From a virus, in the IMG/VR virus record IMGVR_UViG_3300010354_000002, positions 19,162-83,161 of that record: a stretch of DNA of 64,000 nt, one strand, 5' to 3'. Positions 16,876-45,310 of the stretch are shown here, piece after piece (position 1 is the stretch's first letter; each line of letters begins with the position of its first letter). The notes below the pieces were generated by a model. The model was not told the DNA's origin, ran no database searches, and saw nothing but the letters and a program-made list of their open reading frames with translations. Both the position numbers and the translations under genes were made by a program.

Positions 16876-17535
16876 CTAACTATGTTTGGAGAACACCAGT
16901 TGCATGATTGTTGGGAAACATTCATCCAGAATTGCCTTGACCGCCTGAGCGACCTCCCTGTGCTCCTTCTGTGTAGTCTCATCCAGACGCAATTTTAGGT
17001 AATGAATCCAAGAGCGCACGTTGCCAGTCATATACATGCGCGTCGGCGTACACAGTGGCAGTACCGACCTTGCCGACTCAGGCGCAACTCCCATGACGAC
17101 CATGTCAACATAGGCCTCATAGGTTCGATGCATCAAACACTCAGCACGTTCAACCGATGCCTTTTGCCCCGGTGTAAGTTCCTGCGAAATACTGGACTGA
17201 CGATTCGTTGTTCCAGCAATACGCATTTCCGGCAAGGCAGGAGGCTTTATCTTGGAGGAGTATCGTTGCGAAAACTCCTGAAAGCAAAAACTCCGATGCC
17301 GCAGTATTTGCGCGGCCACGTCCCGTGTCGTGTTGATTTCAATGCATGCTGTGGCGTGTTCAAAAGGCGACCAATGGTTATGTTCTACAAGATATTTGAA
17401 CAGGCGAGAGTATTCAGGGTTTTCCTGATTGGACGAACTAACCCGCGCAATGTAGGCGATTAGTGCCTCCGCATTAGGCGTCGCCCACACCAAAGACGCA
17501 GTGCGCCCGTCTGAATTACCCCAGTTTCCGTTCAT
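16876..17535 (-). CDS. thyX: FAD-dependent thymidylate synthase
   Basis: HWSPFEH, RHRSFCFQEFSQRY, GNVRSWIHY...R...TQKEHR. Confidence 0.95.
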   Translation of the reverse strand: MNGNWGNSDGRTASLVWATPNAEALIAYIARVSSSNQENPEYSRLFKYLVEHNHWSPFEHATACIEINTTRDVAAQILRHRSFCFQEFSQRYSSKIKPPALPEMRIAGTTNRQSSISQELTPGQKASVERAECLMHRTYEAYVDMVVMGVAPESARSVLPLCTPTRMYMTGNVRSWIHYLKLRLDETTQKEHREVAQAVKAILDECFPTIMQLVFSKHS

Positions 17536-17759
17536 TCCACAACCTGCCATTCGTCTTCCATCAGTTCACCGAGGATGTAAGGTCCGCCATGAAGCACTGT
17601 GCGTTCCTCTGTGACCCCATCTATTTCGGAATGCATGTAGAACGCCCAGCACTGGTAGTATTTTTCGGGCTTTGCCAACAGGTATTGGCCATCGGGCCAG
17701 TATTCCCGCCGTATCCGTTTTCCCTCCCGAAGGGCTTGCAGGGCTTCCGGTCCAGTCAT
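17532..17759 (-). CDS. Tad2/DUF2829-like protein, copy 4
   Basis: MTGPEALQALREGKRIRREYW...ELMEDEWQVVE. Confidence 0.75.
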   Translation of the reverse strand: MTGPEALQALREGKRIRREYWPDGQYLLAKPEKYYQCWAFYMHSEIDGVTEERTVLHGGPYILGELMEDEWQVVE

Positions 17760-18013
17760 TTGTCAACCTCCACTACTTCCCAGTCGTCGTACATCAACAA
17801 TTCAGAGAGGAATATTCCTTTGGCATATGAAGTTATGACTACACCTTTGTCATCAATCCAATCTATTGAGTTTGGATTCCATTCATCCGTGCCATACAGG
17901 ATGCATCCTTCTCCATGGAAGCAAACAGCATTGGCATGAACTCCTTCACCCCAATGTTGCCTCTTGATTTTCTTGCCGTTGCGCAGGGCTTGCAATGCTT
18001 CCGGCCCAGTCAT
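17756..18013 (-). CDS. Tad2/DUF2829-like protein, copy 3
   Basis: MTGPEALQALRNGKKIKRQHW...LLMYDDWEVVE. Confidence 0.75.
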   Translation of the reverse strand: MTGPEALQALRNGKKIKRQHWGEGVHANAVCFHGEGCILYGTDEWNPNSIDWIDDKGVVITSYAKGIFLSELLMYDDWEVVEVDK

Positions 18014-18264
18014 TCCGCCAACTCCACTACTTCCCAGTCGTCGTGCAGGAACGAGGCCGCAATCCAACCGGGGTAGTTATGTGCGTCGTCCATGAAGATC
18101 GCCGATCCGTGAATTACGATATCAAAATCGCAAGGGCCTCCGTCCAAATCTTCGGCCCCTTCCTCGTCCCAAGTAAACGCTTTGAAATGCGTTCCCGGCG
18201 TCCACATGCACCGTCGAACGGCTTTGCCTCGCTTAAGGGCTTCTATCGCTTCTGATCCGGTCAT
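18010..18264 (-). CDS. Tad2/DUF2829-like protein, copy 2
   Basis: MTGSEAIEALKRGKAVRRCMW...FLHDDWEVVE. Confidence 0.75.
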   Translation of the reverse strand: MTGSEAIEALKRGKAVRRCMWTPGTHFKAFTWDEEGAEDLDGGPCDFDIVIHGSAIFMDDAHNYPGWIAASFLHDDWEVVELAE

Positions 18265-18266
18265 CC

Positions 18267-18506
18267 TCACGGATTCTCCTCCCAGACGACTGTATCCGGG
18301 TCTACCAACTCCCATTTCTCCAGAATCGTCTCGCAATGCGGCTCCCAGAGACACCCTCCCCTCATGCCCGGTCTGCTGACCTGTGGCATCTCAACGATAT
18401 ATCCATGTTCGTTGATGCCGTACGCCCATCCAGCCCCGCGCAGCGACTTGGGTCGAAACCACTCTCCCGAGTAGACAGCCCGCTTGATGCATTTCCGCAT
18501 TGTCAT
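18267..18506 (-). CDS. Divergent Tad2/DUF2829-like protein, copy 1
   Basis: MTMRKCIKRAVYSGEWFR...WEP..ETILEKWELV. Confidence 0.5.
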   Translation of the reverse strand: MTMRKCIKRAVYSGEWFRPKSLRGAGWAYGINEHGYIVEMPQVSRPGMRGGCLWEPHCETILEKWELVDPDTVVWEENP

Positions 18507-18970
18507 TTAGTACCCGTGCTCCCAAACCCGCCATTGCCACGTTCCGTGGCATCAAGTTCCTCAACAAGCGTCAATTCAGCAATCAGAATAGGCGTCAGCA
18601 CCATTTGGGCAATTCGGTCGCCTCGCACCATTATGAACGGCTTGTCACTTGTGTTGTGCATGATTACCTTGATCTCGCCCCGGTAGTCGGAATCAATTGT
18701 TCCCGGCGAGTTCAGGACATGTACGCCATGTCTGTATGCCAACCCACTCCGAGATCTAATCTGAATTTCGGTCTGCCTTGGCAAACCAGCAAGCCTGATT
18801 CCTGTCGGAATTGCCTTCGTTTCGTGTGGCTCCAAAACACAAGAATCCGATGCCCTGATGTCCATTCCTGAACTACCGGGTGTCTCGTAGGATGGCAACC
18901 CGTAGAGGTTGACCATCTCCTTGTCCATCTGGATGAGTATGTTCATCATCCCTGATTTGCGGTTGCTCAT
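18503..18970 (-). CDS. dut: Trimeric dUTPase
   Basis: SGMDI, RSRSGLA, NSPGTIDSDYRGE, GDRIAQ, RGNGGFGSTG. Confidence 0.97.
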   Translation of the reverse strand: MSNRKSGMMNILIQMDKEMVNLYGLPSYETPGSSGMDIRASDSCVLEPHETKAIPTGIRLAGLPRQTEIQIRSRSGLAYRHGVHVLNSPGTIDSDYRGEIKVIMHNTSDKPFIMVRGDRIAQMVLTPILIAELTLVEELDATERGNGGFGSTGTK

Positions 18971-19614
18971 TACTCCCCTTTCGTCTGTAGATGGCGTACG
19001 GCCTTTTTCAGACGTGACTCGTATGCATCCTGATCGCTTCGGTCGTACTTGGGCTTGTTGGCGGCTTCCCTCTTTTCCCGTTCCCATTTATCATTTTCGG
19101 CTTTGATGATCCTGCACGCCTTGCGAGCCTCGTAATCAGACAGTTTCAACAGTGGCCGAAGCAGAATCTGATCAAACGGTCCGCCATGGTCCTTGCTTGG
19201 GAACTCTTCAAGCCATGCTGGTAGTTCCTCCGACCCTGCGGCCTGCCCAAGCATAGGCTGCGAAGGCGACTCAAGTTGCCTGTTGGCCGGTGGGGCCGGG
19301 GCGATCACATGGCGGCGAACATCTGCTTCGTTTCCCGCCATTACCTGCATCCTGTACACCTCGCGAACCTTGTTCTCAAGGGCGTCCCATTTGGGTCGAA
19401 ACTGGCTGTTTCGGATGAAAAACATTACCTGCCAACCCTCGGCATTCCATCCTGTGCCGTGCGAGTCCCTAAACCGAATCCCCCGGTCGCTGATCCGCTT
19501 GCACAGTTCGATCAATAGCCGCCATGCCTCTTCGTCCACATCGCACCATTCAGGGCCGGGAGCATGTTCCATTAGTTTGCGGATCTCCGTGCAGAATGCA
19601 CGGATGTCATTCAT
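18970..19614 (-). CDS. Hypothetical replication-region protein
   Basis: Coupled to both neighbours. Confidence 0.6.
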   Translation of the reverse strand: MNDIRAFCTEIRKLMEHAPGPEWCDVDEEAWRLLIELCKRISDRGIRFRDSHGTGWNAEGWQVMFFIRNSQFRPKWDALENKVREVYRMQVMAGNEADVRRHVIAPAPPANRQLESPSQPMLGQAAGSEELPAWLEEFPSKDHGGPFDQILLRPLLKLSDYEARKACRIIKAENDKWEREKREAANKPKYDRSDQDAYESRLKKAVRHLQTKGE

Positions 19615-19874
19615 TTCCCGCATATACGCTTTGACTTCTTGAACTCATCAACATCCAAAGCGGAAATGCAGTTGTTCGCCAACACGCCTAAATCGGCGCG
19701 AGTCAGTCGCATCTGTTGCGTTTGGCGTGCAAACGATTGCGCTTGCGGATTATGTGGCTCTTCCGCAACCCAGTGTTTGCCTAGTGCCTCCAAATCACGA
19801 ATTGCCACACATATGCTTGTGGTTATCTGGGAAACCTCCAACAACCTACCGCGTACGATATCTCTGTTCTTCAT
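19611..19874 (-). CDS. Hypothetical protein
   Basis: AGGAGG RBS and own promoter. Confidence 0.7.
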   Translation of the reverse strand: MKNRDIVRGRLLEVSQITTSICVAIRDLEALGKHWVAEEPHNPQAQSFARQTQQMRLTRADLGVLANNCISALDVDEFKKSKRICGK

Positions 19875-19931
19875 ATCAACCTCCTGCGCTATGGCGCAAA
19901 CAACACTATCGCAATACCACTATGTTGTCAA
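19875..19931 (-). promoter_or_regulatory. Promoter overlapping the stop codon of the replication gene
   Basis: TTGACA(19926-19931)-17-TAGTGT(19903-19908); TGCGC-CATA-GCGCA hairpin. Confidence 0.7.
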
Positions 19932-20896
19932 GCGTCTGGGCTGAACGAAAGCGCATGGATTACGCCGTCCTGTGCGTTGTCCACCCAGTCAATCCCGTCC
20001 AACAATCGTAGCCGTATGTCCCATTCAACGTGCGAGATGATCTTTCGCTGATCTTCGTCCGAAAGGACAAGGAAACTCGCCTGATCGCCTCGCAATGCGT
20101 TCATCCGGGCACGCTTGAGGCCGTTCGCTTCAGCCGTCGCAATCTTCTGTGCCTTGGTTGGTTCGGCTTGCTTGGCTTGCTCCTCAAGGAGCGCATCAAA
20201 ATGCCCAACGACGCTGCGGAACGTAACCATCGCTGGACTAGACCACCGCTGAAGGGCATTGCGGGTGGCAGCGGCAACTTCGGCTGGGGTCCGTCTCGCC
20301 TCAATCAGATAGTCCAGTTCGGCACGGAACTTGTCCAGTACGGACAGAGGGAACCTCTCGCCAACAATGTGGCGTGCTGTCGAGAATGCACGGTACAGGG
20401 CTTTTCGATCCGGGGTGTACTCGTGCTCGTCCTGATCGTTATCGGGCCTAGGTAAGCCTTCTAGTATAGTTTTACGTTGTAGATTACTATCTATTTCATT
20501 TCGTCTATTTATGTGCGCCAAATTTGACACTGGGGGGGCGTCAAATTTGCTCCCCCCCGTGTCGTTTTTGACGCTGGGGGCGAAGTCTGCTGGAGTGCAC
20601 ACGACGACCTCGTTTGTCCTTTGTGCGCCGTCCTCCGAAAAGCGATTTGAACGTTGGATCAGGCCAAGGGATTCCAGTTCGTCGTTGGCCCTGTCAAGGG
20701 TCCGGAGCGAGCAACCGACCATCTCCGACAGCCGCTTGCGACTCGGAAATACACAGTTCCCAGACCATGCATGCGACTTATAGGCAAGCCAAAGCAGACG
20801 TGCCGCCATTGAAATTTCAGCGTCGAACATGACACTGTTGTGTGCTACCGTCCACGGCTCTTGCGTGGACAAACGTACATTGGTAACGTCTTGCAT
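19928..20896 (-). CDS. Replication initiator (HTH_36, lambda O-like organisation)
   Basis: ARLLW...VFPSRKRLSEMVGCSLRTLDRA..EL...GLI.R...GAQRTN; internal repeats. Confidence 0.85.
   Translation of the reverse strand: MQDVTNVRLSTQEPWTVAHNSVMFDAEISMAARLLWLAYKSHAWSGNCVFPSRKRLSEMVGCSLRTLDRANDELESLGLIQRSNRFSEDGAQRTNEVVVCTPADFAPSVKNDTGGSKFDAPPVSNLAHINRRNEIDSNLQRKTILEGLPRPDNDQDEHEYTPDRKALYRAFSTARHIVGERFPLSVLDKFRAELDYLIEARRTPAEVAAATRNALQRWSSPAMVTFRSVVGHFDALLEEQAKQAEPTKAQKIATAEANGLKRARMNALRGDQASFLVLSDEDQRKIISHVEWDIRLRLLDGIDWVDNAQDGVIHALSFSPDA
20460..20585. repeat. Iteron-like repeats and AT-rich tract within initiator gene (candidate origin)
   Basis: TTTGAC(A/G)CTGGGGG twice, CAAATTTG palindrome twice, G/C homopolymer runs, adjacent AT-rich 20460-20510. 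Confidence 0.55.
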
Positions 20897-21297: not shown

Positions 21298-21421
21298 GCC
21301 AATCCTCCATATCGGGATGATCCCGTTGTTCCCACCAGCCAGCCACCCTGATCACACATGCGATCAGGATGGCCAGCGCAACGATTGGTACGGCGATAAC
21401 TGCCATGGCTAAGTTATACAT
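21290..21421 (-). CDS. Small TM protein (not in ORF track)
   Basis: MYNLAMAVIAVPIVALAILIACVIRVAG..., 43 aa, coupled on both sides. Confidence 0.55.
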   Translation of the reverse strand: MYNLAMAVIAVPIVALAILIACVIRVAGWWEQRDHPDMEDWHD

Positions 21422-21983
21422 CCTTATCCAGAGTTTTGATTTTGGCTATGGTATAGCCGTCTTCGATCACGAAGCCGCTTGGGCAACGCCCCTCGGCAAT
21501 CCATTCCTTTGTCGGCAATTGGCTGATCAGAACCTTCTTGGTAACCTTTACAGCCTCGGGCACGTTTTGCTCTGCCCAAGCAATCGCATCTCCCTCGGCG
21601 TCGTTGATGGCAACGCTCTGCCCTCGCGTGACAAACGAGATCGTGCCGAACGGGGTTTTGTGCGTCTTGGATGCGTATGAGCCATCGGCCTTTCGGGGCA
21701 ACAGGCTATCGGCGACGTGCTTGGCCTGTTGCTCGTAACGCTCAAGCCACCAATCACGTTTCCGCTCGCGTTCAACAATGATCTTCTCCGCATTTGCGAT
21801 AATCGTTTGCAACTCGGCTTTTGCCGCCGCCACATCCGACTCATACCGCAACAGGCGACGCATGAAAACAAGCAAATCATCTTCGGTCTGAACGCCGGTG
21901 GCGTCCAATGCGCCGTCTACTGGCCCAGCGTACTCGCCGGTCTCCTCGTCCCACAAATCCTCTCCAATCCGTACGATTCCCAT
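21414..21983 (-). CDS. Mu Gam / siphovirus gp157-like nuclease inhibitor
   Basis: DEETGE N-terminus, coiled coil, KTHKTPFGTISF. Confidence 0.75.
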   Translation of the reverse strand: MGIVRIGEDLWDEETGEYAGPVDGALDATGVQTEDDLLVFMRRLLRYESDVAAAKAELQTIIANAEKIIVERERKRDWWLERYEQQAKHVADSLLPRKADGSYASKTHKTPFGTISFVTRGQSVAINDAEGDAIAWAEQNVPEAVKVTKKVLISQLPTKEWIAEGRCPSGFVIEDGYTIAKIKTLDKDV

Positions 21984-27150: not shown

Positions 27151-30100
27151 ATGCCTAGCACGGGGGCGACTTTCCCAGCCTCGGGATCGGCTACGTCGCC
27201 CCCGTCTCCGGGTGGAGCGACGTGGTCCAATCCCGGCAACATAGTTGCAGACGATACAAGCAATGCAACGCTTTCGTCGGGCAATGGAATATCAGGACGC
27301 CTAGTTGCAACCCAGTTTGGTTTCAACATAGGATCGGTAACTGTTCAGGGCATAACGGTCACCATCCGTGGTGGTTACGTTGGGCTATCCAACCCTGACG
27401 AAGTTTTTAAAGCCCAACTACGCAATGCAAATGGCAACACGGTAGGCGATGCGAAAACCTTCAGCATCCCGTCAAACGAAGAACAAACTTTTACTCTTGG
27501 CGGAACATCCGATACATGGGCGGCAGGTCTTACGTCCACTGATATCAACGATTCCGATTTCGGCGTTGAAATCTGGTGCGAGGCCGCAGATCAGCCAAAC
27601 TACTCCGTAAATGTTGATTATGTCAACATAGATGTTACCTACTCCGGTAGCACGACGGTTGACGGCACGGCATTCAGCACATCAACGGCAACAACGCAGG
27701 CCACTGGGGTTCCAGTCAAGACAGGCTCTGCGACTCCTTCTTCAATCGCCACACCCAGCGCGTCTGCAAGCCTGACGAACATCGCGGCGGCCTCGTCAGG
27801 AAGTATTTCTACAGCACAAGCACTCGTTGTGCGCGTCGCTACTGGTGCGGCTGTAGCAACGCCGGGCGCATCTGCTAGTGTGTCTGGCACAAGGCTGCAA
27901 AACGCAACGGCAGACAGCGGTGCATCGGCATTTAGGGAAGCCACGGGTGTTCGACTTCAGAATGCGCAAGGCGACGCAAATGGTCAAGCCCTTGCAGTAT
28001 CTAACGCTGTCAAAGTGCCCACCGCAGATGCCAGTGTGCAGTCATCGGCATCGGCAAGCGCGGATGCCCTCCGGCTTCAAAACGCAACAGCAAACGCAAC
28101 AAGTGCCGCAATCTTTGACACCACGGGCACTCGATTGCAGAACGCTGAGGCCGATGCCCAATGCATGGCGACGGCAAGCGCGTCTACGCAGAACACCGCC
28201 AACGCAGACGCATCCATCAGCAGTGCCGCCTTTGCTGACTCTCTTGGTGTACGGGGAGCCGTCACCTCCGCAGACATCAGCGCAGGTGCTACTGCTATCA
28301 CTGCCGCGCAGGTTATTGTGCAACCAACCAGCAGTGGAAACGCAACGGCCACGGCGACAGCCACTGCGGTGCGCATACGCACGGGGCTTGTCTCGCGTCA
28401 GGGGCGAGCCAATGCGAACGTCTCCGGGATGGTGGTGCATCGGTCCGTCGTAAACACATTTGCGAACAGCACGGCGTTAGTAACACCAACAATTAGTAAA
28501 ACAGGCACCGCAGCAGCGTATGGGCTGGTAGCCACGTCCGCCGAGGCAAACCTCGCCAACGGAGCCAGTGCCAGCGTCACCGGATCGGCTATAGCCTCGG
28601 TCAATGCAGTGTTGGAGGGATACCGGTTTGGCTCTCTTGTTCAAATTCAAGAGAGCAATGCGAACCTGCTAACGGGCGAGACTTGCGAGGGTGGCGTTAC
28701 CGTCCTGCGTGAAGAGCGAATGGTGGGTGGGGGCACATTTGGCGGGCGCACAATGGATACGCAGTGGGCTGGATTGTTGCCGCCTGAAGAGTGCTCCTTC
28801 CCGGTGCGAAGAGTTAGATGCAGTGGTTCTCTCAGTGTTCCATTCGGGTCGCTAAACTGGTACGACTTTATGATCGGGCCTCCCGTGCCTCCCGGTGGCA
28901 CCAATCCTGATCCTGCAATATACGAATATGGTTTCAGGGCTACGTTTTCAACAATATGGGAAAGTCGCACTGTTGAGGAAAAGGAGACATTTGTAGCGTC
29001 TAACAGTGGTACGAACCCATTGCAAGCCGATGTCACACGCAATGGAAAATGGAAGGCTGAGTTTGACGCCGAACTTTGTATTGCGCACAACGAGGGAGGC
29101 TCGTCAGGCACTGGCGCAAACTTTGATGCTGATCCACCACACAACTCTTCGGTACGCATTTTTTATCGTCTAAAGCGAGGTGGCACTTACCTATACGAGG
29201 TTGAACTTGGAGAGACAAAGGCGATCATGTCGGGCACGATTACGACACGTCCTGAACTTCCGTTGCCTGATGGAATTACTCTCAATGCGACAATCCAAGG
29301 AGCCACTTCTTGCAGCCATCCGCAGATCACCGCCACGGCATATACGAGTGGAACTTGGCGTGGAGCGGACATTGCCGCCGACAAATCGGTTAGTGCGCCC
29401 AGTGGCAATGCAACAGCATCAAACGGGAGCGGAACCAGCGCAACTATTGTCCTTCGTGCGCTAACGCCGGACCCAAGCGGATTTTGGGCCGACCTTGCGC
29501 AAGCCAACGCATATATGTGGAAAGCGGTGCGCCTTGACTATGACCTGCAAGCAAAACGCAACGCCATGGAGTCTCCATTCCCTGATGCTTCAAGCGACAA
29601 GTATTTCAGGGCAAACGAACTGGTAGACACTCCACCGTTTCAAACTACCTTTGGAGAGTCTCGCACCCTTAGATACGAAAACAGCATTGTACAGGTGCTC
29701 ACAGGTGACCCATTGGCGGTCGTAGCCGAAGCCTCTCATAGCATCCCGAACCAATTCGGTGCAATCTATATGTACGATCCCGCCATCAGCAAGATGGACA
29801 AGTACTATCTTGTCAAAGACCGCAAGATGGCTGGGCTGTCCCTCTCGATACCACAGGCGACAACCAACTTTACGGGAACGGATACGGCAGTCACCGGTGG
29901 CCCGTATGGCGTTCAGAGGTCGTTTGCAGGCACAACCTTGCAGTATCAGCCATTGATGGGTTACAGATACCTTGAGGTCGCCATCACGGAGACTGGAAGC
30001 AATAGTCCCGGGACACCGATTAAAGTCATTGTGGAACGAACAGCGGAAACCGAGGGGGAAGTTCCGCCAACCAAGGAATACACAAAGGATCGGCTAGGCA

Positions 30101-31872
30101 ATGCCTTGGAATCACCGGGAGGCGGGGCCACAGCCACTTTTGTGATTGACATGTGTTCTCCAAGCAACAGTGCCCAAGCAGTAGACGCACAGGAAACCAC
30201 ATATCCATATGACGAGGACTGGACATCGCAGGGTGGCTCAGAGGATTCCTACCGCCGCATAGGGGAGGGGTATCTAACAGGATTGTTGTATGCGTCGAAC
30301 ATCAAGATTGTCTCGGACGCAAATCGCTCGTACACCATCAATCACATCAAATGTCGCCGCATAGGTGAGACCGTGCGTGTATCTAACCTGCCGAGCCGAC
30401 CAATCCCCGACGTTCCCGATCCTGACCGAGACAAGGGCAGTTACTGGTTCAAGCAACGACCTGACACCATCTTCCACGATCCAGATGAGCCACCACCGCC
30501 ACCGGGTGAGGAAGATCCGTTTGCGACCACGACGAAGCACTATGTGCGTCATTGTTTCACCTGCGACCTAGACGGCAGACTGATTGCCGCAGAATGGTCG
30601 GATTGTGAATGGCAACAAACTACTGGTGGTGTTAGTGGCGTTGTAACCAATACGTTGTTGCAGAACTCCATTACGTGGCTTGCGGATCGCATCAACTCCA
30701 ACTCGTTGCTGCCCGGTTGGGCTGCGACAATCGCCGCGCCCATGCCGGGATCTTCTGGCCCATTGTGTTACTACAACCGCAATAGGAAAATGGTGGGGTT
30801 GCTGGGTGGAGGTTTGTATTGGGACCCGCCAAGCATCTATGCGGCGCAAGGCCAATGGGTCACAGGGCTTGACCGTATTGCCTACGACCCGAACCCTGAT
30901 ATTGATCAAGGCATTCCGTGGCAAGGTGGCTATGATCGTCTTGAATCCTGCCCCGGCAAAGTCGGCGATGTCTTCCAGCATAAGAATGACATCACCAAAC
31001 CAGAGGCACTTGTTCTACGGCTCGGGCAAGTCCGACGAGCACAGGCCGTAGGAATGGTTCTTGACCAGAATGGGCTTGCGGAGGTTGACGCCCGTCTAAA
31101 TCTAAATCAGACAATCAACGGAACGTTGGAACTGCGAGGCACCGGTCTGAGCGATGCATTTGGTTATGCGCAGACGCTTCTTCCGCACGCAATTACCGGG
31201 CCGGACACCTCTACCGTTTCGTTTGAGCAAGGCGGCTCTGCGGATTACGATACGGTACGGCGTAAACGTTTCTATTTCCGTTGCGGTGTTGTTCAGGTTG
31301 GCGAGAGTACCTACATTGCGCTGTATCGGCATGGGCAAGATCGGGCGTGCCTATACCATTACGTTGCAAACACGGGGTTGGTAGTCTGGGATTACCTTGG
31401 ACAGCCGACCGATCCCGCATCAGCCAAGACGGAGACGGTCATTGACGACGCTACGGACGCCAGAATGCCATCTGCGTGGTTGCGCCCCGAAGAGTTCCAC
31501 GAGGTTGTATATTTGCGAGGGACTAAACCTGTTTATGGAAAGTCAAACCAATTTGTGCGGAGTTGGAGATTGACCGAGATACCCGGCTCGGCTGAAGCCA
31601 TCGCTGCTTGTCATCAAAACGGGCGACTCATCGTGGCTGCGTACCATGACAATCGCTGGTACGTTCGCGTTGGCAAAATGAATAAGGCCACTGGAGCCTA
31701 TACGTTCAGTGCAGAATCCCCAATACTTGCCCAGAACGCCGCAAAACCACATGGACATCTCTATACAAGGGCAGATAACGTCATAGAATTTGCGTATCTC
31801 AATAGCAGCAATCAGCCGCGAGTGGTCAGATGTCATTCTCTATCGCTTGACGGGACAGGTACATGGGCATGA
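27151..31872 (+). CDS. Large tail fibre/adhesin: N-terminal lectin-like domain, ~20-aa Ala/Ser repeats, C-terminal tail-anchoring region
   Basis: 1573 aa; WSNPGN...FGF...LGG.SD.W domain; RLQNA repeats. Confidence 0.7.
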   Translation: MPSTGATFPASGSATSPPSPGGATWSNPGNIVADDTSNATLSSGNGISGRLVATQFGFNIGSVTVQGITVTIRGGYVGLSNPDEVFKAQLRNANGNTVGDAKTFSIPSNEEQTFTLGGTSDTWAAGLTSTDINDSDFGVEIWCEAADQPNYSVNVDYVNIDVTYSGSTTVDGTAFSTSTATTQATGVPVKTGSATPSSIATPSASASLTNIAAASSGSISTAQALVVRVATGAAVATPGASASVSGTRLQNATADSGASAFREATGVRLQNAQGDANGQALAVSNAVKVPTADASVQSSASASADALRLQNATANATSAAIFDTTGTRLQNAEADAQCMATASASTQNTANADASISSAAFADSLGVRGAVTSADISAGATAITAAQVIVQPTSSGNATATATATAVRIRTGLVSRQGRANANVSGMVVHRSVVNTFANSTALVTPTISKTGTAAAYGLVATSAEANLANGASASVTGSAIASVNAVLEGYRFGSLVQIQESNANLLTGETCEGGVTVLREERMVGGGTFGGRTMDTQWAGLLPPEECSFPVRRVRCSGSLSVPFGSLNWYDFMIGPPVPPGGTNPDPAIYEYGFRATFSTIWESRTVEEKETFVASNSGTNPLQADVTRNGKWKAEFDAELCIAHNEGGSSGTGANFDADPPHNSSVRIFYRLKRGGTYLYEVELGETKAIMSGTITTRPELPLPDGITLNATIQGATSCSHPQITATAYTSGTWRGADIAADKSVSAPSGNATASNGSGTSATIVLRALTPDPSGFWADLAQANAYMWKAVRLDYDLQAKRNAMESPFPDASSDKYFRANELVDTPPFQTTFGESRTLRYENSIVQVLTGDPLAVVAEASHSIPNQFGAIYMYDPAISKMDKYYLVKDRKMAGLSLSIPQATTNFTGTDTAVTGGPYGVQRSFAGTTLQYQPLMGYRYLEVAITETGSNSPGTPIKVIVERTAETEGEVPPTKEYTKDRLGNALESPGGGATATFVIDMCSPSNSAQAVDAQETTYPYDEDWTSQGGSEDSYRRIGEGYLTGLLYASNIKIVSDANRSYTINHIKCRRIGETVRVSNLPSRPIPDVPDPDRDKGSYWFKQRPDTIFHDPDEPPPPPGEEDPFATTTKHYVRHCFTCDLDGRLIAAEWSDCEWQQTTGGVSGVVTNTLLQNSITWLADRINSNSLLPGWAATIAAPMPGSSGPLCYYNRNRKMVGLLGGGLYWDPPSIYAAQGQWVTGLDRIAYDPNPDIDQGIPWQGGYDRLESCPGKVGDVFQHKNDITKPEALVLRLGQVRRAQAVGMVLDQNGLAEVDARLNLNQTINGTLELRGTGLSDAFGYAQTLLPHAITGPDTSTVSFEQGGSADYDTVRRKRFYFRCGVVQVGESTYIALYRHGQDRACLYHYVANTGLVVWDYLGQPTDPASAKTETVIDDATDARMPSAWLRPEEFHEVVYLRGTKPVYGKSNQFVRSWRLTEIPGSAEAIAACHQNGRLIVAAYHDNRWYVRVGKMNKATGAYTFSAESPILAQNAAKPHGHLYTRADNVIEFAYLNSSNQPRVVRCHSLSLDGTGTWA

Positions 31873-33143: not shown

Positions 33144-34413
33144 CGAGGCTACGCCGGGACAACTTCCACGGTTTGAACGATTTGATTCATCTGATTCCAA
33201 CTGGTCGCAAACAGCCTCAGCCCATCCGGGAGCCGTGCGTTCCAAGTTGGGAGGTATGCGATTTCATTCATTGCGTGTCGCAGAGGGCTTGAGGCGTAAA
33301 AACGTCGGTCCTATTTCCGCGCCCGACATGTATCGCCAGATGATTGGGCGTGGCGTCTCCAAACAAGAAGCGGCATTTGCCGGTCTTCATCCAAATATGC
33401 ATGACAATCTGCCTGCCATGACACCGTCTCAATGGCATCAATATATGTCGCAAAAGTTGCCTAAATTGTCAATGCAGAATCAAGATGGACTAAATTCAGG
33501 AATCTACGGCAACCTGTTGACGCAACAATATGGAATGCGAACGCCGATGGAGAGGATGTGGCAAAAGGGATATATGCCGTCACGTCATGGCGTTGGAGGC
33601 AATAAGACCGAACATACGGGTGCAGTCAGCATGACGATGGATGACCCAAGGTTGTCGTATTTTGGAATTCATCACCAAGCCGTTAAGGGGCATGGTGACC
33701 CTCACATTGTCCACTACAAAGGATTCAATGTGGTAGATCCGCATGGCGGCATCTCCGTCGTGTTGGATCAAGTTCAATCCGATTGGCATCAAAAGAAGCA
33801 CAATGTGCAGGAGGAAGACTTCGACCCTTGGGACATGGCCGATAAAAAGGACATGCGCAAGCACAAGGAAAAGAAAGCGGAACTGCGAGACAACGTCAGG
33901 ACATTTGAGCATGCGGATTGGCCTACGCATGATTTGTTTGACGCACACTTCCCCACTTACTTGGATTTGCCATTCGGGCATAGTGACAATGGAGAGTGGG
34001 AAAACCTTGCCCTGCGTATGGCTTTGCACAATGCTGCTCATCAGGGAGCCGACCGTATTGCATTGCCGTTGGCCGATCACGATCAAGATCGTTTTTGGCA
34101 AAATGGACTTCAAGTGCCACTTCGACAGGCGGATGACAATGTTGTTCGCAGGAACTCAGTCACCCTGCCGCGTGAGGCGGCAAAAATTGCCCAGACGTTG
34201 CGTGATCAGGGAGTAAAGACCGGCACATGGAATTTTCCTGTTCCGCTATATGGCAAATCAGTTCAGTTGAATACAATTGAGTTGACGCCCGAGGCCCGTA
34301 GAACGCTTATCATGCATGGCCTTGCGCCATTTTCAACCATGAACCCGCGAGATATTCATCGTGCTATCAAAGCATTGCCCGTCGTGATCCGCAGGCGCAA
34401 GGAATCTTTGTAA
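33136..34413 (+). CDS. Putative internal virion protein, paralogue 2
   Basis: VVLDQVQSDWHQK...WENLALRMALHNAAHQGADRIALP; colinear with 31869. Confidence 0.65.
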   Translation: MDNEATPGQLPRFERFDSSDSNWSQTASAHPGAVRSKLGGMRFHSLRVAEGLRRKNVGPISAPDMYRQMIGRGVSKQEAAFAGLHPNMHDNLPAMTPSQWHQYMSQKLPKLSMQNQDGLNSGIYGNLLTQQYGMRTPMERMWQKGYMPSRHGVGGNKTEHTGAVSMTMDDPRLSYFGIHHQAVKGHGDPHIVHYKGFNVVDPHGGISVVLDQVQSDWHQKKHNVQEEDFDPWDMADKKDMRKHKEKKAELRDNVRTFEHADWPTHDLFDAHFPTYLDLPFGHSDNGEWENLALRMALHNAAHQGADRIALPLADHDQDRFWQNGLQVPLRQADDNVVRRNSVTLPREAAKIAQTLRDQGVKTGTWNFPVPLYGKSVQLNTIELTPEARRTLIMHGLAPFSTMNPRDIHRAIKALPVVIRRRKESL

Positions 34414-37397
34414 TGCCAGACCCTCCGCTTATGCCGCTCCAGACATCTGGCAAGGTCTCCGTGACGGGGGCTATTGCATTTGGGGACATTCACGCCATTC
34501 ATGGGAATCAACTTCAACCGTCATTTGTCTGGGTGGATCACATGGGTGGCACGATCATGGACACCCTCACCGACCCGACTAATATGAAGGCCGACCGAGT
34601 TTTGGGAGTGTCTCACGCTGCACCGGTATTTGTTCCATTCCATCAAAAGATAGAATCTTCCAACGTCACCTTGCCAGTTGACAACACGCAATACATTCCG
34701 GGGATGGCAATCCCCATTGTCTCGTGGACCTGTACAAACACAGGCTCCGTGACGCCTAAGCAAACTGCATATGCGGATCGTTATTTCGGGTTTGAATATT
34801 TCGAGACGGTGCTGCCGGAAGCGGCCAACCTAAGCGACGCCACTAATCTCTGGCAAATCTATGAGGCTAGCCAGTATCGCAATACCGACGGTGGTTCCGT
34901 CGTGTCGTTTGATGAACAGGGCTTTACGTTGTTCATCCAGAAGCAAAAACTTGGATATGTAAACACGGTTAACCCTACCAATATCTCAATCTCTTGGGAA
35001 GTCTACACAAAGGGCGCAGACAAGTCCGGCACGGAACCCGGCGTATTTGAACTCACCCTATACCAGAACAAGCCGCCTGAACTTACCCTTGATGGTCGCT
35101 CGCTGCGATCTGCTATGAGTTTTGGCACGCACCCGATTGGCATGATCGGCTCCATGGGCAATGCTGATCTGACGTTGCAACAGTTCGTTCAGGTCATGAT
35201 TGTCGGTGGGAGAATGCAGGTAACTGTGCCGGGCACTGGAGTGCCGATTGTCGTACACCTTGAGCGCATTTGGCATGCGACCGTAAGTGGAATTCCAGTC
35301 AACAAAGATCAAGAGCCACAAATCGCATACGCCTACGTGCCAAAGGGTGTTGCGGATCGCCTTCCTGCGTCTCTTGGCGGGTATTCCGACATTGATATCT
35401 ATCGTTGGCCATCCGGGCAGCACCCAATCATGGGTGTCGGCGGCAACGCGACCAAGTTCATCGTTACGGATCGGTGGCCAGCAGGAACGTGTCCTGACAT
35501 CCCTGCAGAGACGCTATCGGACGAGTTTGACGTTATCAAGAGCAATACCAACCTTGAAGCCGGGATCGAAATTGGAATCCTAGAGCCTCGCATTGGCAAG
35601 GTGACATTGTCGGTAAAGGGCTTTAGCCAATACTCGTTCTCACTGCATCCGATGCGTTTTGCGAACAACTTTTCCTATACATCCATCCAGCAACAGTTGG
35701 GCTTCACGCCAAGCGTCACCACGCCGCCGACGTTTGACCTGCATATGCATGCCGATATCGCCAAGAACCTTGATTCTGGCGAGACGCATACCTGCAAGCA
35801 TATACCTACTGCTCAGGTCACGCTGACAGACGAGCACCTTGCCGGTTCACAGATAAGCCAATACAGCCTGTCCTGCGTTTCAACTGAAACGCCGTTTGCT
35901 TACGCTGGCATCAATACAGTGCGATACACGCCCGGTATTGAGCGCATCTCCATTCGTTACGCTGGGATCACCGAACTAGACCCTCCTGACGAGGAGACCT
36001 ACAACATCTTCGCCGTAGGCGAGGGGCAAAATGGGTGTGCTGAATATTTGGTTTCGGTGACAGAAGAGTCATCGTTCGACTTCGGTGGCATGCGTGTGCA
36101 TCAAAACCTTGGTGCTACTTTCAACAACTACTCCGGCATCCAGCAATTTGCGCAGGATACCGGTGTGCGAGGGGCTGGGAATATCGCCCTCTGTTGGCGG
36201 TGGGGCTACAAGCATAGCGAGGGCATCAATGGGCAGGAAGGCCCAGCATGGTGGTCTACTGAGGAAGAGCCGGTCTACGGCCCCGGGTGGGGACGCCTAT
36301 ACGGATTCTGCGATACCTACGCCTTCTCTGGCACTACCGGGCGATACAGCCTGACGTTGCAGGGCAAGTCCATGATGGCTCGCCTTGACGACACTGTTTT
36401 CCACGCTCCGCCCAACATGGATGGCTGGAACCACTACCGGGCTGTGTACACGCTGCTATCCATGGCCGGAATACCGGACAGCCGAATTGGCTTCATGACC
36501 GAGGTGCCGGATGATCCCTATGGACTTGAGGCGACCGACCCCGACTTTGATACGGGCGGCTATTTCTTGCCTGTAGGTGTCGGCTCCAACCCATGGACGC
36601 CGATTGCTCGCAGCATGACCGTGGGCCAGTTGATGGGCATGATTCAGCAGGTCACGCAGTTCATTCTGTATGTGGACGACCTTGGGATTTGGCGTTACGA
36701 GCCATTCATGCGCGACGCAACCGGCAACCCGAAGCGTATTTTTCGAGAGTATTATCCGTACGACTCAAATCAGGGCCTTACGCAAATGTGGGATGTGAAT
36801 GTCACAATCTCAACTGCGGACGTCCGCAACGAGGTTATTCTGGTCGGTATTGACGCATATAACCCCTTGACGTTCCTTGACCCTATCTTCGCAGCCGAGC
36901 GCGACGAACTCTCCATAAATGCGAACCCAAGCCAGCAACCGGCAAACTACATCGGCTGGAAGAAAAACTTCGCAATGACTGATTCACGCTTCGCCACAGC
37001 GGAGTTCGCCAAGAAAACGGCAAAGCGTCTGTTTGACACCATGCGTCAACCAGCGGTGATTGTCACGTTCTCCTGTTGGGGACAGCCTGATATCTATCCT
37101 ATGGATTTCATCGGAGTTGAATATCAGCGATCTGGATTGTCTGGATTCCCTGCGGTGCTTGGTGTCTCGGAGGAGGCAGACAATACCATTCCGCTGTTTG
37201 TCACCAAGATTTCCACAACCATCACTCGGACTGCCCGAGGGCTTATCCCAACGAGTCGCATTGAGGCTCGCTACATCCCGCTTGAGGCATATCAAGACCT
37301 TGGCGATGGAGTGAGTTCGCTAGGCAAAACAAAGGGCGACAGTTCAATGAGTAACGGCAACAATACAGGTGGCGGTACAGGGCAAGTAGGCCCGTAA
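34413..37397 (+). CDS. Tail tip / baseplate hub protein
   Basis: C-terminal LYVDDLG.WRY, VRNEVILVG, WGQPDIYPMDFI hub-like motifs. Confidence 0.7.
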   Translation: MPDPPLMPLQTSGKVSVTGAIAFGDIHAIHGNQLQPSFVWVDHMGGTIMDTLTDPTNMKADRVLGVSHAAPVFVPFHQKIESSNVTLPVDNTQYIPGMAIPIVSWTCTNTGSVTPKQTAYADRYFGFEYFETVLPEAANLSDATNLWQIYEASQYRNTDGGSVVSFDEQGFTLFIQKQKLGYVNTVNPTNISISWEVYTKGADKSGTEPGVFELTLYQNKPPELTLDGRSLRSAMSFGTHPIGMIGSMGNADLTLQQFVQVMIVGGRMQVTVPGTGVPIVVHLERIWHATVSGIPVNKDQEPQIAYAYVPKGVADRLPASLGGYSDIDIYRWPSGQHPIMGVGGNATKFIVTDRWPAGTCPDIPAETLSDEFDVIKSNTNLEAGIEIGILEPRIGKVTLSVKGFSQYSFSLHPMRFANNFSYTSIQQQLGFTPSVTTPPTFDLHMHADIAKNLDSGETHTCKHIPTAQVTLTDEHLAGSQISQYSLSCVSTETPFAYAGINTVRYTPGIERISIRYAGITELDPPDEETYNIFAVGEGQNGCAEYLVSVTEESSFDFGGMRVHQNLGATFNNYSGIQQFAQDTGVRGAGNIALCWRWGYKHSEGINGQEGPAWWSTEEEPVYGPGWGRLYGFCDTYAFSGTTGRYSLTLQGKSMMARLDDTVFHAPPNMDGWNHYRAVYTLLSMAGIPDSRIGFMTEVPDDPYGLEATDPDFDTGGYFLPVGVGSNPWTPIARSMTVGQLMGMIQQVTQFILYVDDLGIWRYEPFMRDATGNPKRIFREYYPYDSNQGLTQMWDVNVTISTADVRNEVILVGIDAYNPLTFLDPIFAAERDELSINANPSQQPANYIGWKKNFAMTDSRFATAEFAKKTAKRLFDTMRQPAVIVTFSCWGQPDIYPMDFIGVEYQRSGLSGFPAVLGVSEEADNTIPLFVTKISTTITRTARGLIPTSRIEARYIPLEAYQDLGDGVSSLGKTKGDSSMSNGNNTGGGTGQVGP

Positions 37398-38704: not shown

Positions 38705-38798
38705 TCTAGAATCCTTTCAGGTTACCGGGGCGATCAGCAACTAAGTTCTGCGAATCGCCCCGTGGAGAGATACTACTACGCCTGTTCGGCGTTGTCAA
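38705..38798 (-). promoter_or_regulatory. Promoter inside methyltransferase 3' end, with structured leader
   Basis: TTGACA(38793-38798)-17-TAGTAT(38770-38775); stem 38726-38762. Confidence 0.8.
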
Positions 38799-40575
38799 GG
38801 CCACGCTTGGAAAAATACAGGGAGATTTGCAACCCTATCCAATGCATCACGTTGACGGACATGGAGTTGCCCAAGGCCTTGTATCTACTGGAGTCGGCTG
38901 TGTTTTCCGCTATGGCGGTGTAGTTGTCCGGGAAACCTTGGAGGCGTTCGCACTCGACCGGGGTTAGGCGTCGCACCGCCATCGTCTGTTGAACATAGTT
39001 TGTCTGCTTCATTCCTGACTGTGCAGCCAGTGCCCCTACTATTGATCCATCACCGTTTATATAACGTACTTCGTCTCTGGTGTTTTGCGTGAACGCCATC
39101 GGCTGTTGCACGGATTCGATGATTCCTATTCCCTGATGCGAGGTATCGGAATGGCCTCCAGCCGATAGGCAGTCGGTCCTATCTCCGGTGATCCATGCAG
39201 GCTGGTTTGAGTAGCCGGAATGGGTGAACGCCACGGGCTGTTGCACGGCTACGCCTTGAGTCGCCATGCTGTCCAGCGTGTAGGCTGGATCGCCTATGCT
39301 ACCTATGCCCAATCCGTTTTGGTTTTTGTCCACGTCACGACAATCCTGCAACGGGATCGCAACCGGCTGTGGCACCATAACGCCTACATGATGTCCAGCG
39401 TTGCCGCCTGACACGCCTCGTATGGTCGGCGACATGTCGTGCATCGGATCGGCAGTGCTACCGGTTGGGTCAAAGCCAATTACCGCATTGCCTTCGGAAC
39501 CCTGCATATTGATCATGGCGACCGGCTGTGGCACCACAACCGCTGGTTGGTGTCCATGCGTTTCACTCAGCAATGTCCCTGTGATGCCGTCCGTACTGAC
39601 CTGCATCACACTACCGCCCTGATCCATCAAGCAAATCGGCTGTTGCACCAGAGGGGTGTTGTTCCCGCCGGTGCCCCATCGCGCCGCCACGGTTGGGCAT
39701 TGTTCCACCGGTCCCGTGATCCGAGAGTCGGTCGGGTGCGATTCGTACACGGCGGATTCGATCACCCATGCAGGATTCTGCGTTTCACCGCCTCCGCCGG
39801 TATTGCGAATTATGGTCTTCGACAGTTCATCTTCTTTGAAGTCTCCGATGTTGGCAGTGAACGTGGCGCGAGATTCAGGCCATTTCATTGTTCCGGAGGC
39901 GTCGTCTTGACCATGCTTTCCAACGCATGCCGAAGCATCTCCGGCAAAGTCTTGTCCCTGCTCTCGGCCCGACGCAAGATGCCTGCGCAGGCTCGGGACG
40001 AGAGATAGTATTTCTGCGGCGTCTCGTGGGTCGCCTGAAGCACAGCCGACAACGAAGATCCTCCGGCGTCGTTGAGGCACTGGGTTTTCGTGCCGTGCCC
40101 CTCGGTGCATTGCACACCTTCCCACCCGTGGGCTGTCAAGCACTCGGTAGCACCACCCATACCCCAATTGCCCCAGCCCTGAGAGGAACGCAGCGAAATC
40201 TCGCCCCTTGTTACTGCTAAGGACTCCGGGCACGTTTTCCCATACGCAAACCTGTGGTCTAACGAGATCAACCAGCCCAAGATAGACAAGTGCGAGGTTT
40301 CCCCGGGGGTCTTCAAGTCCTTGTCGCAATCCTGCCACGCTGAAACTTTGGCAGGGCGTGCCTCCCACAATGACATCTGCTGATCCTTTTCCAATTCCCC
40401 ACTCCTTGTATTTGGTCAAATCTCCGTAGTTCGGCACGTCTGGATAATAGTGTTTCAACACCTTGCACGGGAATGGCTCAATCTCGGAAAAACCGACAGG
40501 CTGCCAGCCCAGATGATGCCATGCCATCGTTGCCGCCTCAATGCCACTGCAAACGCTCAGATACCTAATTGACAT
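38776..40575 (-). CDS. C5 cytosine DNA methyltransferase with multi-module variable region
   Basis: SVCSGI, GGTPCQSFS, WENVPG, PQRRRRIF, RRLTPVECERLQGFPD, YKALGNS. Confidence 0.95.
   Translation of the reverse strand: MSIRYLSVCSGIEAATMAWHHLGWQPVGFSEIEPFPCKVLKHYYPDVPNYGDLTKYKEWGIGKGSADVIVGGTPCQSFSVAGLRQGLEDPRGNLALVYLGLVDLVRPQVCVWENVPGVLSSNKGRDFAAFLSGLGQLGYGWCYRVLDSPRVGRCAMHRGARHENPVPQRRRRIFVVGCASGDPRDAAEILSLVPSLRRHLASGREQGQDFAGDASACVGKHGQDDASGTMKWPESRATFTANIGDFKEDELSKTIIRNTGGGGETQNPAWVIESAVYESHPTDSRITGPVEQCPTVAARWGTGGNNTPLVQQPICLMDQGGSVMQVSTDGITGTLLSETHGHQPAVVVPQPVAMINMQGSEGNAVIGFDPTGSTADPMHDMSPTIRGVSGGNAGHHVGVMVPQPVAIPLQDCRDVDKNQNGLGIGSIGDPAYTLDSMATQGVAVQQPVAFTHSGYSNQPAWITGDRTDCLSAGGHSDTSHQGIGIIESVQQPMAFTQNTRDEVRYINGDGSIVGALAAQSGMKQTNYVQQTMAVRRLTPVECERLQGFPDNYTAIAENTADSSRYKALGNSMSVNVMHWIGLQISLYFSKRGLDNAEQA
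39885..40394 (-). CDS. Overprinted alternative-frame polypeptide (M.EcoHK31I beta-like)
   Basis: 169-aa same-strand nested ORF ending SSLSAVLQ...KYYLSSRACAGILRRAESRDKTLP; AAGGAG upstream. Confidence 0.7.
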   Translation of the reverse strand: MEKDQQMSLWEARPAKVSAWQDCDKDLKTPGETSHLSILGWLISLDHRFAYGKTCPESLAVTRGEISLRSSQGWGNWGMGGATECLTAHGWEGVQCTEGHGTKTQCLNDAGGSSLSAVLQATHETPQKYYLSSRACAGILRRAESRDKTLPEMLRHALESMVKTTPPEQ

Positions 40576-45200: not shown

Positions 45201-45310
45201 CCATCAACGGCCTGCCGGGGACGGGTGTAATGCGCCCAAATACCGGCGGGTCTGCTATGGCAACCAACATGGCAATGTTCAATAACAGTGTCTACAGGGA
45301 TGCAACCTAA
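42209..45310 (+). CDS. Tail tape measure protein
   Basis: 1033 aa, Ala/Gly/Gln-rich helical, follows frameshifted chaperone, ends KLEVTING. Confidence 0.85.
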   Translation: MADIRISTQVEGLQQALSDIQTLRSQLEALGTMNVGGGGGTGGGGGMQGGGGGGAAGTSSAGTVPIPPSFPGQNSAGNGSSTPAQQTGPAPTNTPVNTQSQNHLQQAVHADQVQANMLAAGENVAKAALQGGQMVAGATGIAGGFGFQMAAQFGQQSFLHISESVNHLRDMASTLRELRGTGANSISSLLTAQQSATANFLAVEDAARKGWADGPTLEAARKAEIAAIEKLMAARAGVGASTMGMLQGAAGLGLGVLGAGAAIGAGYVAGNMAAGAYTAMEMEAEMIRDEPSREYMRAVGNRLGLGLDTRAEEIAIARSRQGYGQRIANINAFGASFEGKFLDFFSGGFTAAKRRERIIELEDRQAREETRILEIEAPTMELQRLFANGGSKEDWNRYRQRLGSAGPRGKDEIIRNQAVAMMGAEIGLGAEGMVGAFTNSGLSDIDRLTTEERTKALASIGVQSYTNLGIRGSLNTMVSGNLNAALASLDFDAIRSFGAVSAGLQGKQGTVASDTEYRRIQQIQEELVKLDYNQNIGMGQRQVNQSEIGAIRSGVMGVGASTDAAIFNIYGKQAATYQPQIEMLRRQIQLTAGNPLVQQQYIAELNNVMGAQLQANDQQFGFMDMVGRQQERLTGAAAGAGVTEAMLFGSMGDRASAIRGTVDPYRMAAGRLEAQMQRMMTGQESYTEEKYRDVMTQLIQAQEGLVKSTINAEKAVFGLSYTFEQSRQQISGAQASTQLIKGYGGVGASSDYLDMQNANQNILSTAESELQKYRSMGLAEDSQEVMGAKQRIANAKMEIAKMPQTIINAPFRAETTEAVAESQFALQMVGMLPGGFGIRRELMGSAIGGLGRERQELDQQLEIARQAAGGELSPGDMAAYNQRRRQITGQQIGLLSEMSYGWQNRLMSTISGAPDMSAITPMLSNRAAIGAGIRSPFFGANLSDLEEGIESSLLVGTMAGAQTPAGLASSAFTNAPKTVSMRGNPLTNPFEGAKLEVTINGLPGTGVMRPNTGGSAMATNMAMFNNSVYRDAT

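Follow-up and report, generated by a model that had tools for sequence, protein, structure and literature searches.

A variable array of diverged Tad2-like genes in an uncultured freshwater phage

The DNA analysed here, called the window, is a stretch of 64,000 nucleotides (nt) from the virus record IMGVR_UViG_3300010354_000002. The record is a complete virus of 83,161 bp with direct terminal repeats, of which the window covers bases 19162-83161, and its source is an uncultured freshwater phage. On the minus strand the window carries a string of overlapping genes in the order dut, A, B, C, D and thyX. The four small genes A to D between dut and thyX are the subject of this study, and three of them belong to the Tad2-like protein family (Pfam: PF11195, formerly DUF2829). 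The genes of this string are given below from the lowest coordinate upwards, with lengths in amino acids (aa).

16876..17550, minus strand: thyX, flavin-dependent thymidylate synthase (Pfam: PF02511, E-value 5.6e-47)
17532..17759, minus strand: gene D, 75 aa, Tad2-like (PF11195, 28.1 bits)
17756..18013, minus strand: gene C, 85 aa, Tad2-like (PF11195, 25.2 bits; AlphaFold2 model)
18010..18264, minus strand: gene B, 84 aa, Tad2-like (PF11195, 30.6 bits, profile positions 1-73 of 73)
18267..18506, minus strand: gene A, 79 aa, open reading frame (ORF) with no Pfam or PHROG match, Tad2 membership weakly hinted at by structure
18503..19087, minus strand: dut, dUTPase (Pfam: PF00692, E-value 1.9e-29, residues 64-192 of 194)

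ATGA overlaps join dut to A, B to C and C to D. A and B are separated by a gap of 2 nt, and D overlaps thyX by 19 nt. The array is part of a leftward string of replication and nucleotide-metabolism genes. An earlier reading of this DNA from its letters alone (the sequence-only reading) had placed the array between dut and thyX and had described three coupled ORFs with common ends. Both statements are confirmed, the first by the PF00692 and PF02511 matches on the flanks and the second by the ORF table, the ATGA overlaps at B/C and C/D and the shared motifs: B, C and D all start with MTG(S/P)EA(I/L).AL..GK...R..W and end with D(D/E)W(E/Q)VVE. The longest dut ORF (194 aa) shares 118 nt (18970-19087) with the upstream ORF 18970-19623. 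Because of this overlap, and because the dUTPase domain starts only at residue 64, the true start of dut is probably an internal methionine. Promoter-like and terminator-like sites were no commoner in the window than in shuffled sequences; no minus-strand terminator-like site lies within the array, such sites being nowhere enriched over the shuffles.

In a HMMER search all three of B, C and D score above the gathering cut-off of PF11195 (25 bits), and a scan of the whole genome with this model returned the same three places and no others. The assignment of these genes to Tad2/DUF2829 in the sequence-only reading thus holds, and the predicted fold of C, described below, agrees with it. B is the most canonical copy: it aligns over its full length with SPO1 Tad2 (PDB: 8sme; phmmer E-value 0.007) and keeps both tryptophans of the SPO1 pocket. 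A word-based homologue search with B found only P0005, a public-database protein with 98% identity, and an exhaustive profile search returned 154 proteins at E-values of 0.001 or below. Other relatives are P0027 for B (46% identity), P0006 for C (55%) and P0007, P0008 and P0009 for D (49-53%); D also has a single-copy relative in the locus L118. A profile of 61 short members of this subfamily matches all of the structurally solved Tad2 proteins ModTad2 (E-value 1e-7), SPO1 Tad2 (1e-6), HgmTad2 (2e-6) and SptTad2 (2e-4).

Among the family-positive copies, structure prediction covered C. Its AlphaFold2 (AF2) model, calculated from an alignment of 61 relatives, has a predicted local distance difference test score (pLDDT) of 83.7, with helices at residues 3-11 and 62-74 and strands at residues 15-18, 27-32, 36-41 and 78-81. 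A low-confidence loop at residues 42-57 is exposed. The top 24 ranked matches of a Foldseek search against the PDB are all Tad2-family chains. VIA-align superposed the model on Tad2 structures with Z-scores of 7.1-8.3 and a root-mean-square deviation of 2.6-2.7 Å over 67-69 residues, and the next unrelated row has a Z-score of 4.8. As modelled, C has the Tad2 fold, with an N-terminal helix, an antiparallel sheet, a late helix and a C-terminal strand.

The centres of B, C and D align poorly with each other, as the sequence-only reading had seen. Across the 61 relatives, C residues 25-66 have a mean entropy of 3.13 bits, compared to 1.70 and 1.83 bits for the two ends; the first pocket tryptophan (W21) is retained in 95% of them. 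That reading had gone further and called the centres unrelated, which is wrong: the model of C shows the same fold, and relatives of each copy are 46-55% identical over their full length.

Gene A is a real ORF coupled to its neighbours, and the sequence-only reading had counted it as a fourth, divergent copy. This family membership is not confirmed. A has no match in Pfam or PHROG, a word search with it finds A alone, and its comparison with the subfamily profile gives an hhalign probability of 0.3%. The family hidden Markov model (HMM) built here scores 3.8 bits against A, aligned over the C-terminal stretch W.P....IL..WELV, which resembles the canonical Tad2 C-terminus as it appears in the SPO1 alignment. 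For the ESM Atlas model of A (predicted template modelling score, pTM, 0.55), the top structural row is a PF11195 cluster with TM 0.69/0.74, a weak lead. An AF2 model of A from the single sequence (pLDDT 48) has its helices and strands in the same order as in C. These models suggest that A is possibly a very divergent Tad2-like member. A Foldseek search with the AF2 model of A ranked ModTad2 first, at an E-value of 0.6 that is not significant and makes the match unusable as evidence by itself.

The junctions between B, C and D contain a direct repeat, whose parts are as follows.

17719..17798: junction repeat copy 1 (C/D), 80 nt, 80% identical to copy 2; contains the codons for ..DDWEVVE, the C tail, ATGA and the codons for MTGPEALQAL.. 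of D
17973..18052: junction repeat copy 2 (B/C), 80 nt, 80% identical to copy 1
17768..17790 = 18022..18044: identical block of 23 nt, containing the minus-strand DDWEVVE codons and the GGAG upstream of the next start

Between 17731-17790 and 17985-18044, 52 of 60 positions are identical, exactly as the sequence-only reading had counted for its 60-bp repeat, and in 30 mononucleotide shuffles of 17400-18700 no 60-mer exceeded 37. The C-terminal half of the repeat owes its 23-nt identical block to B and C sharing six out of six codons, and the GGAG of the ribosome-binding site lies inside the WEVVE codons. In the N-terminal half, identical residues share a codon in only 3/9 cases for B and C, 5/14 for C and D and 6/10 for B and D. 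With such low codon agreement, recent gene conversion at this half was rejected, and the conserved N-terminal end is held at the protein level and not through recent DNA exchange.

The stretch is present in 24 listed metagenome runs from aquatic, riverine and freshwater sources, four of which (X2, X3, X4 and X12) were compared with it contig by contig. Contigs from three of these four runs lack one segment of the array.

17768..18021: 254 nt, absent from the X2, X3 and X4 contigs, in which C is without its body and B without its final codons

One contig each in X2, X3 and X4 joins 17767 to 18022, and 23 nt fit both sides of the join. The joined contigs are at least 95% and mostly at least 99% alike to the window. 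The X12 contig at 17904-18223 spans the intact B/C junction with zero differences. Positions that no contig covers in X2-X4 were excluded from the evidence. Logan assemblies are built on 31-mers, and a 23-nt repeat should not produce a false join. The 23-nt block is the crossover site of a natural difference between a three-copy and a two-copy form of the array.

The two-copy form encodes a product of 84 aa with the body of B and the tail of C (..EVDK), which is coupled by ATGA to an intact D. This chimeric product has one mismatch (V16I) to P0005. The 994-nt contig of P0005 was not returned by the metagenome scan, and the chimera was confirmed instead from the X2-X4 contigs. The two-copy runs also share base differences from the window in thyX and dut, at 17238, 17491, 17494 and 18821 in X2-X4 and at 17206 only in X3 and X4. 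Based on these shared single-base differences, the two-copy form belongs to a slightly diverged strain lineage. The joins in three runs, together with changes of single cassettes in related arrays (see below), bear out the proposal of the sequence-only reading that the junction repeat permits the content of the array to change.

That reading had also suggested counting the copies in relatives. We picked loci with the motif MTGxEA[LI][QE]A, 23 viral and 33 metagenome contigs (56 in total), and scanned them with an HMM built from 65 short matches of the profile search. Same-strand runs of at least two Tad2-like genes were found in 33 of these 56 motif-picked loci and runs of at least three in 24. 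The longest run is one gene in 23 loci, two genes in 9, three in 10, four in 5, five in 8 and six in 1. We additionally grouped loci that share a member with at least 85% identity, which gave 21 groups including the window; by group, runs of at least two occur in 10/21 and runs of at least three in 7/21. The loci with the highest total numbers of genes are the following.

L131, 1-5204: 11 Tad2-like genes in 5.2 kb, the largest total
L127, 790-4833: 8 Tad2-like genes
L124, 868-2830: 7 Tad2-like genes

The junctions of these arrays resemble those in the window. A 4-nt overlap is present at 58 of 65 non-redundant junctions, and identical in-register junction blocks of 17-28 nt occur in 9 of 25 arrays. 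For 145 out of 156 members the best match lies outside their own locus group, and pairs within a locus are never more than 60% identical. FastTree placed each of B, C and D with proteins of other contigs (local supports 0.99, 0.88 and 0.83, respectively). Judged from these comparisons, the array members are old paralogues and not hypervariable inserts. When each cassette type is written as one letter, related arrays show a common order and differ in single cassettes that have been inserted, lost or replaced.

E B A F C I / E B A F X C I / B A M C I
G D K / G. D K / G D. K e
a. A P Q / a b j A P / b j P Q

Besides separate genes, there are also proteins in which several Tad2-like domains are fused. 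P0011 has three Pfam stretches of the family, and P0021, P0025, P0030 and P0031 have two each. P0015, on visual inspection, combines an MTG-type domain with a Tad2-like domain of more canonical type. PHROGs 872 and 1048 match B and D in their C-terminal halves only and may, from these alignments, be fused multi-domain Tad2-like proteins. In some loci Tad2-like genes are interleaved with thyX or dut or abut them (L084 3134-6527, L087 3587-5613 and L109 3001-3674). In L092 (4001-6998) the order is Tad, Tad, ThyX, Tad, Tad, .., Tad, dUTPase, terminase. Papers on multi-gene Tad2/DUF2829 arrays were not found in a search that left subscription journals and preprint supplements outside its scope.

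The Tad2 sponges with solved structures are SPO1 Tad2 (gp34.65; PDB: 8SME/8SMF/8SMG, 8WJE), Myroides ModTad2/MoTad2 (PDB: 8V3E, 9EIB), HgmTad2, which is AcrIIA7 (PDB: 8KBI-8KBM), and SptTad2 (PDB: 8WJD). The array genes share with them the Pfam family, the fold as predicted for C, the size class of 75-104 aa and the encoding by a phage, as well as the N-terminal helix, the G-K-x-V-R-R-x-x-W motif and the C-terminal D-W-x-V strand. The solved sponges are described as single genes and homotetramers, whereas three to four coupled paralogues, known from sequence, are found here. The fused multi-domain proteins are comparable in that several diverged domains are made together from one locus. Unlike the fused proteins, which are one polypeptide, the array consists of separate genes joined by ATGA overlaps, so that single units can be lost or gained.

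Poxviruses have so-called gene accordions, in which the host-range and immune-evasion gene K3L expands in copy number and recent, near-identical copies raise its dosage. The array would be similar as a viral counter-defence gene array with copy-number change driven by recombination, if the role proposed below is correct. In contrast to the accordions, its copies are old and less than 60% identical, which suggests that a change of content and not of dose matters here.

The virus is a tailed phage, with PHROG matches to a head protease, major head protein, portal, large terminase, endolysin and replication initiator. No close isolate was detected: blastn of the locus against phage isolates gave only short dut and thyX stretches at 69-79% identity, and tblastn with B and D gave zero matches among 50,697 phage isolate records. 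At 22-28% identity, the major head protein is too distant from those of isolates to point to a host. Upstream of the array, in the same leftward string, are a replication-initiator-like protein with an HTH_36 domain (19928-20896, minus strand) and a weak Mu Gam-like match under the Pfam cut-off (21414-21983, minus strand). Elsewhere in the window, a 599-aa protein (38776-40575, minus strand) has a C-5 cytosine DNA methylase domain (Pfam: PF00145, E-value 2.7e-46) in two stretches and, from this domain, probably serves the self-protection of the phage against restriction. For three very large ORFs at 27151-31872, 34413-37397 and 42209-45310 (1573, 994 and 1033 aa), Pfam and PHROG gave no match at the thresholds applied; these ORFs may encode novel types of tail, injection or virion-associated proteins.

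We favour, at slightly better than even chances, the explanation that this cassette-like array of old, diverged Tad2 paralogues, three or possibly four in number, gives the phage a changeable counter-defence repertoire against the signalling immunity of its host. A cassette extends from one ATG to the next, with a 3' end coding for the conserved C-terminal strand DDWEVVE, and the same bases double as the ribosome-binding site and ATGA overlap for the next gene. As every cassette opens and closes with motifs common to the family, short stretches of identical DNA arise at the junctions, and recombination between these blocks removes or adds whole genes that are still coupled. By analogy with the solved Tad2 proteins, the products would most likely assemble into small oligomers with nucleotide-derived ligands, and the conserved helix alpha1 together with the terminal strands would provide the common scaffold. 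The variable centre corresponds to pocket-lining parts in SPO1 and HgmTad2, and each paralogue could thus bind a different ligand. In this way the array would widen and alter the counter-defence range of the phage.

An extension of this explanation, which we regard as rather doubtful, is that the arrays are combinatorial sponge libraries with mixed tetramers, hybrid pockets and a trade of cassettes at the junctions. Mixed tetramers are conceivable because in SPO1 Tad2 the dimers are linked through the nearly invariant helix alpha1, and each ligand pocket is formed by protomers that belong to different dimers; a mixed pair would thus have a new hybrid pocket. If so, n cassettes would give about n(n+1)/2 specificities, and phages could respond to nucleotide-based immune signals, some perhaps still undiscovered, with a broad and rapidly evolving set of sponges.

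Several points weigh against the favoured explanation of a changeable counter-defence repertoire. The locus counts are motif-selected and not a random sample, and many of the loci are interrelated (the 21 groups above). X2, X3 and X4 are all riverine metagenomes of 2018-2019 and possibly come from one campaign. As C is strongly diverged, the two forms may differ through its loss from a three-copy form or through the import of a foreign cassette. The other points concern the ligand pocket. According to the structural papers, the contacts to glycocyclic ADP-ribose (gcADPR) are W25, N26, W73, S76, T78 and D79 in SPO1 Tad2 and W21/N22 and S90/T92/D93 in HgmTad2. The first tryptophan (W21) is the only one of these contacts kept in all of B, C and D. 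N26 is replaced by T, G or P, the equivalents of S76, T78 and D79 are gone in all three, and the second tryptophan (W73) survives in B and is absent from C and D. The W-x-P-S-x-T-D stretch of SPO1 Tad2 is an insertion relative to the subfamily profile. Crude pattern counts found the full contact motif in 0/150 unique array members and an N after the tryptophan in 0/75 members whose N-terminus the pattern caught. According to Li et al., 99% of the Tad2 proteins in their analysis conserve the gcADPR site, which makes the clade described here atypical.

The pocket residues for gcADPR and His-ADPR are therefore largely lacking in B, C and D. For cyclic dinucleotides, HgmTad2 and SptTad2 are described as having an insertion of 35-41 residues between beta2 and beta5 that forms the pocket, and SPO1 Tad2 is reported not to bind these molecules. 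By length, B, C and D (84, 85 and 75 aa) are too short for this insertion, compared to HgmTad2 with 104, SptTad2 with 101 and SPO1 Tad2 with 90 aa. With most contacts absent and no room for the HgmTad2 insertion, the binding by B, C and D of gcADPR or cyclic dinucleotides, the Tad2 ligands named in the sequence-only reading, is doubtful on sequence grounds. The altered pocket does not exclude a sponge role as such, since the family as a whole binds many different signals. The ligands reported for it are gcADPR, His-ADPR, N7-cADPR, cUMP/cCMP and cyclic dinucleotides, and a recent preprint describes Tad2 homologues that inhibit the cyclic-oligonucleotide-based antiphage signalling system (CBASS), the pyrimidine cyclase system for antiphage resistance (Pycsar) and three Thoeris types (10.1101/2025.08.24.671296).

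The same loss of canonical immune-signal contacts would fit a role in phage nucleotide metabolism, in which proteins with the Tad2 fold bind or buffer common nucleotides and cofactors such as dUMP, dTMP, dUTP or folate and flavin derivatives, or regulate dUTPase or ThyX. Translational coupling links the array to dut and thyX in the window, and one or both of these genes were found in the fetched flanks of 21/56 loci (18/23 viral contigs with 4-kb flanks and 3/33 metagenome contigs); in L086/L087, L092 and L109 they are immediate neighbours of a Tad2-like gene. This recurrence may reflect placement in an early replication and nucleotide module or a functional link. However, a search from the other side found a Tad2-like gene (E-value < 0.05) in 0/80 loci of the closest ThyX relatives, which are at most 54% identical and yielded no close phage relative. 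Other arrays adjoin DnaB, SSB or AAA_25 helicase genes, as would fit a general placement in early or replication modules, and copy number and content vary freely, which is unusual in a fixed metabolic partner. The accessible parts of the Tad2 papers report no family member with such a role. We consider a metabolic function quite unlikely.

Lost ligand residues could also mean that the proteins bind host proteins directly, such as defence effectors or sensors, with the Tad2 fold as a scaffold and the variable centres as binding surfaces. The high variability of the centres and the exposed, low-confidence loop 42-57 of C fit this, and a DUF2829 protein entered the literature as the anti-CRISPR AcrIIA7. 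Yet Li et al. could not reproduce the inhibition of Cas9 by HgmTad2/AcrIIA7 and showed it to be a sponge, and the characterised members of the family, in the available portions of their descriptions, all bind small nucleotides. The retention of W21 in nearly all relatives also speaks against a mere scaffold, and we judge this alternative unlikely. Finally, the genes could be evolutionary debris, duplicated small ORFs that a compact operon keeps and that are at present functionless, and the two-copy form does show that C is dispensable in nature. Against this, three frames are intact with conserved family motifs, synonymous sites have diverged where residues are kept, and each copy has the relatives on other contigs mentioned above, of equal length and with equal ends. 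The ATGA architecture is moreover maintained at the great majority of junctions across many loci (58/65). Debris is in our view very improbable.

Among the known families of phage proteins that capture bacterial immune signals, Tad2 is to our knowledge the most widespread, and it has been studied as single genes. Short, diverged Tad2-like genes commonly form coupled arrays of 2-11 copies in uncultured aquatic phages, with junctions that are recombination sites used in nature and with members that lack the known ligand residues. With its three small proteins and a natural two-copy variant, the locus provides ready test objects. The arrays suggest a wealth of ligand specificities still to be explored and an uncomplicated genetic route by which phages may change their counter-defence set.

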